The notes under the pieces: model-generated
What the model was told of the DNA's origin: nothing
What the model saw: only the letters and a program-made list of their open reading frames with translations
The model's database searches: none
IMG/VR virus record: IMGVR_UViG_2728369393_000013
Reading direction: 5' to 3' (one strand)
Source: a virus
Lineage: Duplodnaviria; Heunggongvirae; Uroviricota; Caudoviricetes
Length of the DNA: 36,573 nt
Shown: in pieces, positions 19,391 to 35,020 of the stretch
Position numbering within the stretch: position 1 is the stretch's first letter
How the letters are laid out: the number at the start of each line of letters is the position of its first letter
Made by a program: the position numbers and the translations under genes

Positions 19391-19590
19391 TTCACTTTCT
19401 TAAATCTAACGACAGACGGCTAACATTTAAGTATTGTGAAATATTATCAAATGCAATCATCATTGATTTACAAAAGATACATTTTGCCCCGAAAGGATTC
19501 CTGTCAGAAACATCAAAAGATGATGTTCTATACTGAGAACCATGGCAACACGGGCATCTAAAGTGAATATGGTTTGTAATATTTTCTACC

Positions 19591-19803
19591 TCAAAGTGCC
19601 ACAACATGAACAGCCGCGGGGCCTTTAGGTCCGTTCTCAATACCAAATTCGACTTCCTGATTCTCAGTTAACGTTTTGAAATCGTTGCTCTGAATAGCTG
19701 AGAAATGGACAAACACATCTTTGCTACCATCTTTCGGCGTGATGAAACCAAAACCTTTTTCAGGGTTAAACCATTTCACTAAACCAGTCATTTTGTTAGA
19801 CAT
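19591..19803 (-). CDS. cspI: Cold shock protein, CspA family (70 aa)
   Basis: [38 protein letters not shown]... canonical CSD with RNP motifs. Confidence 0.9.
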
Positions 19804-20166
19804 CATTATTACCTTTTGAAGAAGTTAGCCCTTGGGCAGAATGGTCCGAAAAAAAATATCAGAGAGAAAAACCAACAAGGAAATCTCAAGAGGTACAAAT
19901 AATAAAATTATAACAATGACTGCTTCAGATAATTTTGTAACAAACCAGAACACCATTAACGCATGATTAACCAACCATAGCAAGGATTACTTTTGTAAAG
20001 AAAAACACACGAATGAAACAATAGCTTTATTTATTAATAAAACGTGTCATTCTGTCTAATGACCTTTTATCTTACCCTTAAGATTTCAAGGATTTTGACT
20101 CATGGAAGAGTCCTTTTTATTTAAATTTCACATTCAGCGCTAAAAATAATCCGATTTAATATTAAT

Positions 20167-22760: not shown

Positions 22761-23039
22761 TATTGTGGTGCTTTTTGTGGGAGTCATCCACTTACGCACT
22801 TTGTTTTGCTATGCTAGCAGTTAGCTTCTGCTGTAAAACTATTCATGCAGCAAACCTGCACTTCACCACAATGGTTAGCATACTTTTCCTGATTAAGTTA
22901 TTGCCAAATATGCTGGCCATTGTTTCATGTATTGGATCTCCTTACTATTTATTAAAGAGATCCAATATTCACCACTCTGTCTGTATCTCCACTCAGGCAT
23001 CAGCCTTCTTCGTTATCGTATACAGACAAACTATTAATT

Positions 23040-23255
23040 TTAATCAGTAATTATGACATTTGCTGCTGCAGGACCTTTAGCACCACTCTCTACAGAGAAG
23101 GTAACCTTTTGACCTTCAAATAAGGTTCGAAAATTATCATTCTGAATCGCAGAAAAATGCACAAACACATCTTTACTACCATCAACAGGAGAAATAAAGC
23201 CAAAACCTTTATCAGCGTTAAACCATTTTACTAAACCAGTCATTTTATTTGACAT
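23040..23255 (-). CDS. cspB: Cold shock protein CspB-like (71 aa)
   Basis: [53 protein letters not shown]... Confidence 0.9.
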
Positions 23256-23555
23256 TCTACATTCCTTAACTTGAGCCTTTCGGCATAAATGGCTTGTATA
23301 ACAGAAACGACTTCGTACTTAATTGGAGAGACTCAAAGAAGGAATAAGTGAATAACACCTGAAATGAGAACTGCTTTAGTAAACTACTTCGTATATCGTC
23401 TGTTCTTCAAACCGACGCAATCATTAACGCATAGTTGAACATATGAAGCAATGTTTATTTTAGACATCCAGCCATCTTCAACCCCATCAAAAAACTATAG
23501 CTTTCTTCAGGAACGTGTGTATAGTGCGCCAAGTTATCAGTATTAAGGAATTTTT

Positions 23556-31090: not shown

Positions 31091-31919
31091 GACGATGCCC
31101 TCCGCTGATATTCAGGAAACGGTGAATATGAAGATTAGCCTTATCCGCCAGACGAATACGTTCAGCCTGCAAGTTAAGAAGGGTTTCTACCAGAACCTGA
31201 TGCGCCTGCGGATCCGAAAGAGTTACCTTGCGCAGAGCACGTAGTGCAGTTGTTACATAGCTGAGTTTATGTAAGTCTTCATCATTCAGACGAGTGAGGG
31301 CTGGGACAGTAGCCATGATGGCAGCCTCCGTATGCAATGGATAACTTCCACCACCGGAAACGCCAATTTCGCTGGTGGTGAACTGAGCAGGGTTGGCGTA
31401 ACCGGCGCATACGGAAACCGGCGCACCTTTCGGTGCCCCCACCCAGCCCACCATAATTTGGGTATAGCTGAGTTGTAGCAACAAAAAAGACGCTAACGCG
31501 CCAATTGTCGCCGTATGCAATTCCAGGACGCCAATCCCGGCACCCGCTTTATAAGGTGCCTGAACAGTGTAACGTCCCGGAATGGCAGAATCAATGTGCT
31601 GGTGGTCCTTCACACTCAACAAAATCACGCCTGAATTTCCACAAAGGGCTAAAGCACTCATGCGGGTAGTCTTTGCGAAGATAGATAACGCGCTGTGTTT
31701 CTGGCTCCCAACGAATAACATGAACATAAAGTCCTCTTCCGTCACGAAACCAGCGGTTAAGTTCCTGCACAACTCGCCCCCCACAGTCAGGTAAAGTTCT
31801 CTGTGGTTACTTACAGCCAGGAGATTTGGTAATCTGCATTCATGCCGTAACAACAGGTGTTCAGCGACGCTGACCACCAGCTGTTGCGACAAACGGTTAT
31901 TTGCCGTTAAACTGTTCAT
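31083..31919 (-). CDS. Hypothetical protein (278 aa) in replication module
   Basis: Long ORF in operon orientation; no motif recognised by eye (no Walker A). Confidence 0.45.
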   Translation of the reverse strand: MNSLTANNRLSQQLVVSVAEHLLLRHECRLPNLLAVSNHRELYLTVGGELCRNLTAGFVTEEDFMFMLFVGSQKHSALSIFAKTTRMSALALCGNSGVILLSVKDHQHIDSAIPGRYTVQAPYKAGAGIGVLELHTATIGALASFLLLQLSYTQIMVGWVGAPKGAPVSVCAGYANPAQFTTSEIGVSGGGSYPLHTEAAIMATVPALTRLNDEDLHKLSYVTTALRALRKVTLSDPQAHQVLVETLLNLQAERIRLADKANLHIHRFLNISGGHRHA

Positions 31920-32709: not shown

Positions 32710-32799
32710 ACAATATGTACCTCCGGTATACATATTACATGATTGAGATGAATCTTCAAGATACTTGTACCTTATCGGTACAAAGGTTTTAATTTCTTT
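32710..32799. promoter_or_regulatory. Divergent cI/cro promoter-operator region with perfect palindrome TTGTACC-TTATC-GGTACAA (32765-32783)
   Basis: Palindrome seen directly; TTGAAG-16-TAATAT on minus strand toward cro; TTGTAC-18-TTTAAT on plus strand ending at cI ATG. Confidence 0.55.
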
Positions 32800-33474
32800 A
32801 TGAAAACAGTCCATGACATCCGGCGGTCTAACGCCAGAAAACTGAGAGATGGTGTTGGCGGGAATTCTTCCTTTGCCACCATGATTGATCGCGAGCCAAC
32901 CCAGACCAGCAGGTTTATGGGAGATGGTGCTACTAAAAATATCGGTGACAGCATGGCACGACACATCGAAAAATGTTTCGACCTGCCTGTCGGATGGCTC
33001 GATCAAGAACACCAGACAACGAACATCACAAAAAAACCTGATGTTTCAATCACTAATAAACAAATCACATTAGTCCCTGTCATATCATGGGTACAGGCCG
33101 GAGCATGGAAAGAAGTTGGATATTCTGAGGTTGATTTGAGCACAGCAGAAACGTATCCCTGCCCTGTACCCTGTGGGGAAATGACTTATATCTTGCGGGT
33201 GATAGGTGATTCAATGATTGATGAGTACCGCCCGGGAGACATGATTTTTGTCGATCCTGAAGTACCTGCCTGCCACGGTGACGACGTTATTGCATTGATG
33301 CACGATACAGGTGAAACCACCTTCAAAAGGTTGATAGAAGATGGGACACAGCGTTATCTCAAAGCGTTAAACCCAAACTGGCCTGAGCCTTACATTAAGA
33401 TCAACGGTAATTGCTCTATAATTGGTACTGTGATTTTCTCAGGAAAACCAAGAAGATACAAAATCAAAGCCTAA
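32800..33474 (+). CDS. CI-type repressor with C-terminal S24 (LexA-like) autopeptidase domain (224 aa)
   Basis: C-terminal GDSM (Ser nucleophile) and downstream Lys; architecture like P22 C2/lambda CI. Confidence 0.8.
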   Translation: MKTVHDIRRSNARKLRDGVGGNSSFATMIDREPTQTSRFMGDGATKNIGDSMARHIEKCFDLPVGWLDQEHQTTNITKKPDVSITNKQITLVPVISWVQAGAWKEVGYSEVDLSTAETYPCPVPCGEMTYILRVIGDSMIDEYRPGDMIFVDPEVPACHGDDVIALMHDTGETTFKRLIEDGTQRYLKALNPNWPEPYIKINGNCSIIGTVIFSGKPRRYKIKA

Positions 33475-33513: not shown

Positions 33514-33542
33514 TTGACAGTGTACCTTTGAGATACATAATG
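33514..33542 (+). promoter_or_regulatory. Candidate sigma70 promoter (TTGACA-16-CATAAT) immediately after cI terminator
   Basis: Near-consensus -35 and -10 hexamers seen directly; overlaps TGTACC operator-like motifs. Confidence 0.45.
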
Positions 33543-33624
33543 TACCCAAGAGAAACAACAAACAGGCAGGACGCCCACGAAGTAGCCGCCTGGGGCATAT
33601 GAAGTCCAGGATGATTCGTTAGCA

Positions 33625-33650
33625 ACAAAAAAGCGCCCTATAGGACGCTT
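33625..33650 (-). terminator. Rho-independent terminator (minus strand) for DUF1311-like gene
   Basis: On minus strand AGCGTCC-TATA-GGGCGCT hairpin (one mismatch) followed by T6. Confidence 0.5.
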
Positions 33651-33676
33651 CGCTCTTTAACAATCTGGATGACTTA

Positions 33677-34189
33677 TTACTCAGATTTGAACTTTGGTTC
33701 TGGCAAAAGAGGAGGAGTTGAGTCCTCGAATCGTAGCCAGTGCTCCCAGATATCGTGGGATTGTAATTCCAGAAGACCAATTTGACGTGATGCAACTGCA
33801 GTGCCAGCTATAGTTCCTCCTGCATAATCAACCTGGACGGACTTTGACGCTTTCTCAATTAATTCTGTCCAAGCTTCACTTTCCGCGTTAAAAGAAGCAG
33901 TTAATTCCTGCAGACGCTGTGGATCATCCTTGTTGTCTTGTTTCAAACGATTCAGGGCGGCCACCGAATACTTATTCTTAACCCAACTAACCTGAGCTAA
34001 CTGAACTCTCTGACAAGCGTCCATATCAGTAGTTGTTTCCTGAGGCATATCAAAGCAGGAAATAAAAAAAGTCTCAACACCATCATTTAGACTACTGCTC
34101 GGCTGGTTCAAAGCATCAGAAGCATTGGATGCTATCGGTATTATCAGTGCTACCGACAGAATCAAACGTTTAACATAAATCGCTCCCAT
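33677..34189 (-). CDS. Secreted DUF1311 (LprI lysozyme-inhibitor-like) protein, 170 aa, moron between cI and pL
   Basis: N-terminal signal peptide (KRLILSVALIIPIASNA); C-terminal EAWTELIEKASKSVQVDYAGGTIAGTAVASRQIGLLELQSHDIWE matches DUF1311 pattern as recalled; SD GAGGGG before ATG. Confidence 0.5.
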   Translation of the reverse strand: MGAIYVKRLILSVALIIPIASNASDALNQPSSSLNDGVETFFISCFDMPQETTTDMDACQRVQLAQVSWVKNKYSVAALNRLKQDNKDDPQRLQELTASFNAESEAWTELIEKASKSVQVDYAGGTIAGTAVASRQIGLLELQSHDIWEHWLRFEDSTPPLLPEPKFKSE

Positions 34190-34477
34190 TTAATTATCCC
34201 CTCTAAGAACAGAGTCATCCAGATTAGCCGAATCCTTGTTGTTGGGGAATAACCAGGCCCACCTCGCCTGATGTGGCTAAAAGCAGGCACATAACAGCTA
34301 AGTATTTTCAACCAGAGAGAATCCTTAGCGTTGTGGTGAATGCGGCTCAGCGCACGCGGGTTAAGGTTGAGGCTGACAGTCGACCTTCTGTGGATACCCA
34401 CCCGCCTGGTGTGCAACCTTCGCCAGGCACCGGGAGGCACCCGGCACCACAACTTTATGCTGTGTGTAGTCCTGGCG

Positions 34478-34511
34478 GTACCAGTTTGTACCCTTGCTTC
34501 CGGCTGGTACC
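34478..34511. promoter_or_regulatory. Putative OL/pL operator region with three GTACC-core motifs
   Basis: GGTACC (34478-34483), TTGTACC (34486-34492), GGTACC (34506-34511) resemble half-sites of the OR palindrome. Confidence 0.4.
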
Positions 34512-34608
34512 GCTCTTTTTACAAAACAGAGAAGAGCATCACCGGACGACGGGCTCATAACCCAATCCATCCGGGCGGCTGCCACCGCAGGTGTTCTTCT
34601 CTGTTTTG
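34512..34608 (+). other. Structured leader element: boxA-like CGCTCTTTTTA followed by long imperfect stem-loop (arms 34522-34536 and 34594-34608)
   Basis: Inverted repeat CAAAACAGAGAAGAG / TTCTTCTCTGTTTTG (14 of 15 bp complementary) enclosing 57 nt with internal GC-rich pairing. Confidence 0.4.
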
Positions 34609-34657
34609 TGGAGAAACCAACCGACCTTGCAGGGTCGATATGATTAGGAGTAGCAAA

Positions 34658-35020
34658 ATGGCTAGCGAACGCAGTACCAACGTGCAGGAATTTATCGTAG
34701 AACTGGACGGCGGCGTATTTGAAACCAAACTCGGCGCAGTTCTCAGCGAAGTCGCTTCCGGTGTGATGAACACGAAAAACAAAGGTAAAGTCTCGGTCAA
34801 TCTGGACATCGAACCGTTTGATGAGAACCGTGTGAAAATCAAACACAAACTCTCATATGTTCGCCCGACTAACCGCGGGAAAATTTCCGAAGAAGACACC
34901 ACCGAAACGCCGATGTATGTCAATCGCGGTGGTCGCCTGACTATTCTGCAGGAAGACCAGGGACAGTTACTGACTCTTGCCGGTGAACCTGACGGAAAAC
35001 TCCGCGCAGCAGGTCGTTAA
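34658..35020 (+). CDS. Hypothetical early protein (120 aa), first gene of leftward operon
   Basis: AGGAG SD 7 nt upstream of ATG at 34658; longer listed ORF is an upstream extension across the leader. Confidence 0.55.
   Translation: MASERSTNVQEFIVELDGGVFETKLGAVLSEVASGVMNTKNKGKVSVNLDIEPFDENRVKIKHKLSYVRPTNRGKISEEDTTETPMYVNRGGRLTILQEDQGQLLTLAGEPDGKLRAAGR

Follow-up and report, generated by a model that had tools for sequence, protein, structure and literature searches.

A divergent, pseudoknotted member of the STnc100/PasD prophage RNA family inside the PL transcription unit of a caudovirus

PasD1 and PasD2, two prophage-encoded small RNAs (sRNAs) of enteropathogenic Escherichia coli, have been detected by Northern blotting, depend on Hfq for their stability, and have many partners in RNA interaction by ligation and sequencing (RIL-seq) data (PMC8550237), and PasD2 is part of the most abundant CsrA-bound chimera (bioRxiv 10.64898/2026.08.12.744399). 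EcOnc27/sRNA103 from enterohemorrhagic E. coli (EHEC) is bound by Hfq and overlaps STnc100, and its overexpression raised the levels of the fimZ and espA transcripts (PMC12711010). PasD and STnc100 have been reported to be structurally related (bioRxiv 10.64898/2026.05.13.724894). This family is already known. Here, we describe an element at ~34297-34520 of a 36,573-nucleotide (nt) stretch of DNA from a Caudoviricetes virus (IMG/VR record IMGVR_UViG_2728369393_000013; this whole stretch is referred to as the window), which is very probably a plus-strand structured RNA of the STnc100/EcOnc27/PasD family.

An initial reading of the letters alone, the original prediction, had pointed to about 120 base pairs (bp) of unusually GC-rich sequence at 34340-34460, containing the stem-loops GCCTGG...CCAGGC and CCGGG...CCCGG, as a possible structured 5′ region or small RNA. 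This GC-rich stretch is real, with a G+C content of 0.66 at 34350-34449 and 0.63 at 34340-34460, compared to 0.49 for the whole window, and in a window-wide composition scan just 0.74% of all 100-nt segments reached the 66% G+C of 34350-34449, placing it in the top 0.7%. Both stem-loops are present in the sequence as well as in the minimum free energy (MFE) fold. The element does lie at 34340-34460, but its true extent, ~34297-34520, is larger. Read from 5′ to 3′, it starts with a hairpin, after which come a multi-helix core (34330-34453) that a 9-bp helix closes off, a spacer rich in G and U, and a terminator made up of a hairpin and a U-tract. The parts of the element, and the two features that overlap its 3′ end, are as follows.

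34297-34329, plus strand: 5′ hairpin abutting P0 (-10.4 kcal/mol, z = -4.8).
34330-34338 with 34445-34453, plus strand: P0, the 9-bp closing helix GUUGUGGUG/CACCACAAC, which encloses five hairpins in the MFE fold.
Within the core domain 34330-34453, plus strand: AAU linker between P0 and P1.
34342-34357, plus strand: P1 hairpin, present in the MFE fold and the STnc100 alignment and supported by covariation.
34363-34369, plus strand: 5′ strand of the pseudoknot, AAGGUUG, pairing with CAACCUU in the P3 loop.
34370-34403, plus strand: variable P2 region.
34404-34411 with 34421-34428, plus strand: P3 hairpin GCCUGGUG (also given as GCCTGGTG)/CGCCAGGC, with a 9-nt loop.
34414-34420, plus strand: 3′ strand of the pseudoknot, CAACCUU, within the 9-nt P3 loop.
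34428-34449, plus strand: invariant 22-mer CACCGGGAGGCACCCGGCACCA, comprising the P4 hairpin and the start of the P0 3′ strand.
34430-34434 with 34440-34444, plus strand: P4 hairpin CCGGG/CCCGG, with loop AGGCA.
34454-34473, plus strand: 20-nt GU-rich spacer UUUAUGCUGUGUGUAGUCCU, unpaired in the folds.
34474-34520, plus strand: intrinsic-terminator-like hairpin followed by CUUUUU, with a 13-bp stem (34474-34486 with 34502-34514; -24.6 kcal/mol, z = -3.8).
34511-34523, plus strand: boxA-like sequence CGCUCUUUUUACA, found by reading the sequence and by pattern search, overlapping the terminator U-tract.
34516-34614, plus strand: long, near-perfect hairpin of ~25 bp in the yfdP leader (-51.2 kcal/mol, z = -6.1), whose 5′ strand starts in the U-tract.

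A search with Rfam aligned 34300-34522 on the plus strand end to end with the STnc100 model (RF02076, positions 1-206 of 206), including the terminator, which, together with the covarying helices described below, supports the proposal of a structured 5′ region or small RNA. The score was 46.5 bits, 0.5 bit below the curated gathering score of 47, with an E-value of 3.4e-8 when 3 kb were searched and of 2.7e-9 when the search was confined to 241 nt, and the match, although short of the cut-off, is far beyond chance. No other Rfam model gave a meaningful score on the element. Besides matching over the full length of the model, the element shares with STnc100, which was also detected as EcOnc27/sRNA103 in EHEC, the same 22-nt 3′ motif, the P0/P1/P3/P4 layout, the spacer followed by an intrinsic terminator, and a location in prophages in the same orientation as the surrounding operon. 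It differs from a typical STnc100 in its P1 hairpin, in having extra P2 hairpins, in having no promoter of its own, and in its position in the early-left (PL) operon upstream of yfdP; a typical STnc100 resides in the late region, with Q or stx2 on one side and the lysis genes on the other. The element is very probably a divergent, unannotated member of the known prophage small-RNA family STnc100/PasD.

The 22-mer CACCGGGAGGCACCCGGCACCA occurs without mismatch in at least 120 IMG/VR viral contigs, which yielded ~80 distinct cores of 110-176 nt. These have a common order: a P0 helix of the form (N)UGGUG...CACCA(N′) with a covarying extension, AAU, P1, a variable P2, P3, and the invariant P4. In the family, P1 reads CCCCC-UNNGC-G(N)GGGG, and in the window GCGGC-UCAGC-GC(A)CGC, with the same columns paired. 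As proposed in the original prediction, conservation was checked in related prophages. The 231-nt stretch carrying the element was found in 2748 of the 5426 complete E. coli genomes and was covered for at least 80% in 1828 of them, about one third of these genomes, and it is present in phages of the SfV, SfII, SfIV, and ST64B type. The element is 95-99% identical in SfV, SfII, SfIV, PhiR49, and other phages, whereas identity to the copy in Salmonella phage ST64B is 87% over the core and 77% over a longer match of 308 nt. More distant copies are present in Cronobacter phage phiES15 and in the P1-like phages RCS47 and SJ46. In RefSeq the 231-nt stretch is labelled as a frameshifted 'hypothetical protein', and such annotation as a broken 'hypothetical protein' follows from the fact that the subfamily to which the window belongs scores below the Rfam threshold.

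The plus-strand MFE fold of 34326-34456 is a single closed domain of -58 kcal/mol (z = -2.55), and only 1 of 200 shuffled sequences folded as well. The RNA domain is ~125 nt long, with four to five hairpins inside. Folding of the minus strand is weaker (z = -1.98) and its ensemble ill-defined, and the non-coding leader as a whole (34290-34670) has a z-score of -7.5. Covariation was assessed in an unfitted MAFFT alignment of 30 members that included the window, ST64B, P1, and RCS47. In this alignment, pairs changed on both sides were found for 5 pairs of P0, 3 of P1, 6 of the 7 of the pseudoknot, and all 6 of P3. P4 is invariant in this set by construction; a compensatory variant, CCUGG/CCAGG with the same loop, is present in the K-12 Qin copy described below. 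The frequent occurrence of G-U pairs indicates that the constraint acts on the plus-strand RNA. With its 5-bp stem and 5-nt loop, P4 has the shape of a boxB hairpin, but the loop sequence, AGGCA, does not resemble GNRA.

The segment directly 3′ of P1 is complementary to the P3 loop in almost every family member, although the sequences involved are diverse: CCAGUC/GACUGG, AUCAGC/GCUGAU or GCUGGU, CUGGUG/CACCAG, CACCGG or UACCAG, AGACUGACAAA/UUUGUCAGUCU, UGGUUAU/AUAACCA in phage P1, CAGUUAA/UUAACUG in K-12 Qin, and AAGGUUG/CAACCUU in the window. Since P3 itself covaries, this pairing between a loop and a single strand constitutes a pseudoknot. Among 26 non-redundant members the mean complementarity was 17.3 in cis versus 11.5 in trans, and none of 20000 permutations reached the observed value. 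In the 30-sequence alignment, 81.9% of the cells pair, compared to 36-46% when the partners are slid along each other, and the covariation score is 0.322 versus at most 0.135 for slid partners. The column registers of P3 and of the pseudoknot vary between subfamilies in the MAFFT alignment, so that pairing in these helices is undercounted. The STnc100 consensus line that Rfam prints with the match shows no pseudoknot.

The 5′ hairpin has one compensatory change (C-G to A-U) in ST64B, and in the same phage the stem of the terminator, which begins 20 nt after P0 and is covered by the terminator part of the STnc100 model, is re-formed from other bases. The spacer sequence UGCUGUGUG is retained in ST64B despite the divergence of the adjoining hairpin, and UGCUGUGU is seen again ahead of the terminator in loci L014, L052, L062, and L231. 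The spacer is a candidate seed or Hfq-contact region. The boxA-like sequence CGCUCUUUUUACA is also found in L001, in mEp460 (L125), and in L129. In ST64B the long hairpin of the yfdP leader carries a compensatory change from G-C to A-U, and mEp460 also has this hairpin; its long helix makes it a putative RNase III substrate. We also observed that the motif UGUGGAGAAAYC (34608-34620 in the window) turns up again, with a hairpin after it, on the downstream side of the core in L156, L166, L184, L229, L240, and L246, and this recurrence spans E. coli, Salmonella, and Pantoea versions whose intervening sequences are dissimilar. In phage mEp460 the yfdP leader, beginning with the terminator, is the same, but no more than the final ~17 nt of the core are present, next to a different moron. 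The core thus looks dispensable, a module that a viable phage can lack.

The window belongs to a subfamily that is marked by the P1-hairpin sequence AAUGCGGCUNAGCGCACGCGG and that stays below the Rfam threshold. Two of its copies are located in well-studied operons. In phage P1, an unannotated copy (L003 2504-2623, AF234172 ~70080-70199) is located in the ban operon between upl and tciA; the copies in P1 and RCS47 score 33-38 bits, lie ~40 nt before tciA, and are not followed by a terminator. The P1 ban operon also contains an annotated dicF-like region and three tRNA genes. In K-12, an unannotated copy in the Qin prophage (L128 2447-2588, MG1655 ~1649446-1649587) comes immediately after the dicF terminator and precedes the start codon of dicB; it scores 34.4 bits, has a P0 of 17 bp, and lies 25 nt before dicB, again without a terminator after the core. 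The searchable text of a study of the dicBF operon does not mention this Qin element (bioRxiv 10.1101/2023.04.14.536235). Both copies share with the window the AAUGCGGCUNAGCGCACGCGG P1 hairpin, the pseudoknot, P4, the absence of an evident promoter of their own, and a site in an early operon. Further members were found in Pantoea and other Escherichia prophages, ahead of various genes, and in several members a boxA-like string, UGCUCUUU(CC), is located directly 5′ of P0. When genomes were scanned with a pattern for the subfamily, most hits were chance matches in high-GC genomes, and only 14 of the 120 loci were real once filtered for P4; where a source is listed, the real loci come from E. coli, E. 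ruysiae, E. albertii, Escherichia sp., and Pantoea species.

DicF-like sequence accompanies the core in P1 ban and Qin dicBF as well as in the operon of the window, three operons that are unrelated. The order differs, with the DicF terminator ahead of the core in Qin and a DicF-like hairpin behind it in the window: the 5′ arm of the window terminator resembles that of DicF, and GGCGGUAYCAGUUU is common to both. Orthology to DicF was considered and rejected, since the DicF model (RF00039) gave only 15.7 bits at 34461-34515 against a gathering score of 48, compared to 76.7 bits for K-12 dicF.

Family members are typically found in the late region, in agreement with the literature. Upstream of these late-region copies lie genes for Q antiterminators (PF03589, PF06530, phrog_753) or a DNA methylase, or stx2AB, and downstream are holin and endolysin genes and a putative NanS-p esterase gene. 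The nearest large downstream gene is co-oriented with the element in 89 of 91 cases, and a terminator of their own, 25-35 nt past P0, is present in nearly all relatives. A sigma-70 promoter resembling TTGACN-N17/18-TAAATT was found in 45 of the 72 distinct members, with the -10 box ending 6-7 nt before P0, so that the RNA would start at P0. Window-type sequences reach a promoter score of 6-7 out of 13. In L009, L023, L067, L105, L011, L030, and other loci, a near-consensus TTGACN-N18-TAAATT ends 7 nt before the closing helix, and in such late loci the RNA would span from the start of the structure to the terminator before the holin gene. This layout is that of a lambdoid PR′-tR′ leader, although the Q gene may be 0.6-2 kb upstream. 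Lambda 6S RNA and StxS are such short leader RNAs of lambdoid late promoters, and the window copy differs from these in not being located at a late promoter. An obvious pause element of the -10-like kind (A at position 2, T at position 6) is absent where the transcribed region begins. The PasD sRNAs differ from the window copy in a similar way, being located in the late region beside Q and LpxR; like the window copy they are prophage-encoded and structural kin of STnc100, a likeness that is drawn from the published reports.

To place the element in its operon, the following features are of relevance.

32766-32782: OR palindrome TGTACCTTATCGGTACA (TGTACC-N5-GGTACA).
32800-33474, plus strand: repressor gene (phrog_4, transcriptional repressor).
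33514-33557, plus strand: PL promoter (sigma-70, TTGACA-16-CATAAT; promoter scan 11/12 at 33514-33541) and two OL operator-like sites.
33631-33650, plus strand: hairpin preceding boxA.
33652-33663, plus strand: exact boxA-type sequence GCUCUUUAACAA, the sole exact match in the window, ~105 nt past the PL start.
33677-34189, minus strand: moron (phrog_7681), with a weak match to the LprI lysozyme inhibitor.
34658-35020, plus strand: yfdP homologue (phrog_204), as in the RefSeq annotation of an E. coli prophage with a 100% identical 231-nt element.

The PL promoter points rightward from just after the repressor gene and is overlapped by the two operator-like sites, which differ from the OR palindrome by 1 mismatch (33521-33537) and 2 mismatches (33541-33557). 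The original prediction had placed putative OL operators next to the element, which proved incorrect, as these sites lie on the other side of the moron. With PL and OL located after the repressor gene and beyond the minus-strand moron, the element falls within the PL transcription unit, which starts ~780 nt upstream of it, and PL is presumably the source of transcription through the element. A promoter scan found no plus-strand promoter-like site at 34200-34330. Downstream of yfdP follow a yfdQ-type and then a yfdR-type gene, and in the E. coli prophage with the 100% identical 231-nt element xis and int come next. The boxA near PL suggests Nus-factor-dependent read-through or antitermination in the PL operon. 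No N-like gene was found, the first gene downstream being yfdP. The hairpin and boxA form a unit, CGCUCUUUAACAA (33631-33663), in which the hairpin, when read on the minus strand, is the terminator of the moron, and this unit recurs with the same immunity module beside a different neighbour in L129. The moron is bracketed by 24-nt inverted repeats that are 79% complementary (33662-33685 and 34202-34225), and similarity to other phages picks up again beyond it, at 34217, an arrangement resembling what the insertion of a cassette would leave behind.

Over its initial ~70 nt (33560-33625; L126 2165-2235), the PL transcript is conserved between the window phage and ST64B. This leader is not significantly structured (z = -0.69) and contains CCAGGAUGA in a small hairpin loop; all that it has in common with HK022 put is GGAUGA, which put carries in stem II. 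The string CCAGGAUGA fits the consensus of a CsrA site.

The experimental data on the PasD sRNAs form, by analogy, the basis for the reading that we favour, in which the element acts in trans, as an Hfq/CsrA-type riboregulator of ~190-225 nt, and we consider the chances of this to be about even. In this model, PL transcription upon removal of the repressor, or induction, would produce the RNA, as this copy has no convincing promoter of its own. Termination at ~34520 and processing at or just upstream of the 5′ hairpin would then release an RNA of ~190-225 nt, which may act in trans in association with Hfq and/or CsrA, as the studied relatives do. The conserved core would serve as a stable scaffold or a protein-binding platform, with target specificity coming from the spacer and from the P2 region or loops. 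Polymerases that read through would express yfdP-yfdQ-yfdR, probably helped by the boxA near PL.

Several observations weigh against a trans-acting RNA. The P1 and Qin copies, without a terminator and 25-40 nt before the next gene, resemble mRNA leaders more than sRNA genes. No convincing promoter for the element was found in scans of the window (34200-34330) or of ST64B, and none is apparent in the sequence of the other subfamily copies, for which the scan was not run, so that the window subfamily sits inside operons. The terminator is also found in phages that lack the core and is therefore not specifically the sRNA's own. Complements of the spacer within the window are no commoner than expected by chance, and no target was predicted. 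The score of the element does not reach the curated Rfam threshold, and the evidence for expression and for Hfq and CsrA binding, applied here by analogy, comes from relatives outside the window subfamily. Finally, the co-orientation with the downstream gene in 89 of 91 cases is what a cis-acting element predicts, and is merely compatible with a free-standing gene.

The latter point brings up the main alternative, that the element acts in cis on the operon in which it lies, with the nascent core acting on its own transcription complex or transcript to secure expression past terminators. This could occur by binding of RNA polymerase, as in HK022 put, by a boxA/Nus antiterminator, or by a module for processing or 5′ stabilization that would set RNAs encoded upstream apart from the mRNA downstream; antitermination, anti-pausing, and processing are the roles in question. 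We regard this as a possible but less likely explanation. The core lies upstream of a long operon, and the strong terminator that usually follows 25-35 nt further on has to be passed to express the late or early genes. Copies occur both at promoter starts and inside operons, as put elements do (PMC9378689). In addition to the UGCUCUUU(CC) string that is often found 5′ of P0 in the subfamily, the window contains the boxA-like sequence at 34511-34523 and the exact boxA at 33652, and in P1 and Qin the copy is an untranslated leader that lacks a terminator. The combination of invariant junction nucleotides, covarying helices, and a pseudoknot is also typical of RNAs that bind a conserved machine. 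The likeness to put is one of possible functional analogy only: both would be folded nascent phage RNAs in early operons, upstream of terminators, and either promoter-proximal or internal. A put element, which suppresses terminators downstream of it in cis by way of the zinc-binding domain of RNA polymerase beta′, is ~70 nt long with two stems, a triplex, and a conserved CAGGAUGA region, whereas the element described here is a closed multi-helix junction with a pseudoknot. We reconstructed putL and putR (putL from L002, with the numbering of PMC9378689) and aligned them with 34297-34520, which revealed no similarity in sequence or structure, and the STnc100 model gave no hit on HK022. Furthermore, Q-type antiterminators are encoded upstream of the late-region copies examined, so that an RNA antiterminator is not needed there, mEp460 keeps the terminator and the downstream genes without the core, and the relatives accumulate as discrete Hfq- and CsrA-bound sRNAs with targets in trans.

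A stronger version of this cis explanation, which we consider rather unlikely, is that the pseudoknotted core is primarily a cis-acting RNA machine that binds the elongation complex or Nus factors, as an analogue of put with an unrelated fold, or that directs RNA processing. Phages would then, in this doubtful scenario, place the core at the start of or inside long operons, namely the late operon after Q, the PL operon, P1 ban, and dicBF of K-12. If so, the downstream genes would pass the terminator, and the sRNAs seen in lysogens would be a terminated by-product. Riboswitch-like switching, in which the 3′ strand of P3 would compete with the 5′ arm of the terminator, was also considered and rejected: the 7 complementary bases are not conserved in ST64B, and the terminator is present without the core in mEp460.

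It is improbable that the element is a tRNA-like processing signal, in which P0 stacked on P4 mimics an acceptor/T-arm minihelix that is cut by RNase P (or by RNase III/E), as in the C4 RNA of P1; such a signal, equally improbable, would free neighbouring RNAs, like DicF or tRNAs, from polycistronic transcripts. The layout resembles a cloverleaf, with a closing helix, a 3-nt linker, and hairpins of which the last is continuous with the 3′ strand of P0, the P1 copy shares its operon with three tRNA genes and a dicF-like region, and the Qin copy, with its 17-bp P0, directly follows dicF. However, ARAGORN detected no tRNA or tmRNA in the window, the P4 loop is 5 nt instead of 7 nt long, and CACCA, instead of forming a free 3′ end, is base-paired. 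In many relatives the primary transcript would begin at P0, which makes 5′ processing unnecessary, and the RNase III/E sites mapped for DicF are upstream of dicF and outside the element (bioRxiv 10.1101/2023.04.14.536235). The C4 model (RF01695) gave no match on the element either, although it found a true C4 elsewhere in the window. The idea that the element itself is a C4-like antisense RNA was rejected for this same lack of a match, and the BLAST hits in P1 were in the ban operon and not in immI. The likeness to C4/IsrK and DicF is that these, too, are small RNAs embedded in phage operons.

A degraded protein-coding gene, the outcome that would have refuted the original prediction, is very improbable: although the Prokaryotic Genome Annotation Pipeline (PGAP) places a frameshifted pseudogene over the 231-nt element, 100% identical in another E. 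coli genome, and a mechanical open reading frame (ORF; 34340-35020) is in frame with yfdP, the four mechanical ORFs that overlap the region are without a single Pfam hit, in line with the lack of a convincing ORF in the original prediction, indels of 1, 7, and 20 nt in the alignment with ST64B break every frame, the variation follows base-pairing, including G-U pairs, and not codons, and CPS-53 of K-12 has yfdP without any of the upstream sequence or the element. An equally small chance remains for a site acting at the DNA level, either OL operators or another cluster of protein-binding palindromes, since the GGTACC and TGTACC strings in 34478-34513 look like operator half-sites, but their spacing and orientation do not fit, no operator match within 3 mismatches exists at 34460-34520, the actual OL/PL region is at 33514-33557, the same sequence is joined to differing gene sets on the repressor side, and the G-U pairs indicate a constraint at the RNA level.

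Other structured RNAs were observed elsewhere in the window. A C4 antisense RNA (31371-31458, minus strand; 80.7 bits against a gathering score of 45) is located directly downstream of an isrK-type RNA (31483-31559, minus strand; 61.2 bits against 50) on the PR side of the immunity region, and this pair is a module like P1 immI and Gifsy IsrK. The equivalent site in ST64B contains isrK and a sub-threshold match to c4-a1b1, the c4 target sites (22.7 bits against 46.7). Matches to the cspA thermoregulator at 19545-19961 and 22977-23416 (both minus strand; 110 and 159 bits, respectively, against 78) indicate that the prophage carries two cold-shock-protein genes with structured leaders. Finally, the Rfam model IS009 matched 1336-1534 on the minus strand (221 bits against 117).

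The pseudoknot, the window subfamily, and the placement inside operons are not captured by current annotation, while the family is present in about one third to one half of the complete E. coli genomes, in Shiga-toxin phages, in P1, and in K-12. With a pseudoknot backed by covariation, an invariant hairpin, and copies in dicF-dicB of K-12 and in P1 ban, its role can be tested in standard strains. If the element acts in cis on transcription or processing, it would represent a second, unrelated class of put-like phage RNA, and if it acts in trans, it would add an induction-linked riboregulator to serotype-converting phages of the SfV/ST64B type.

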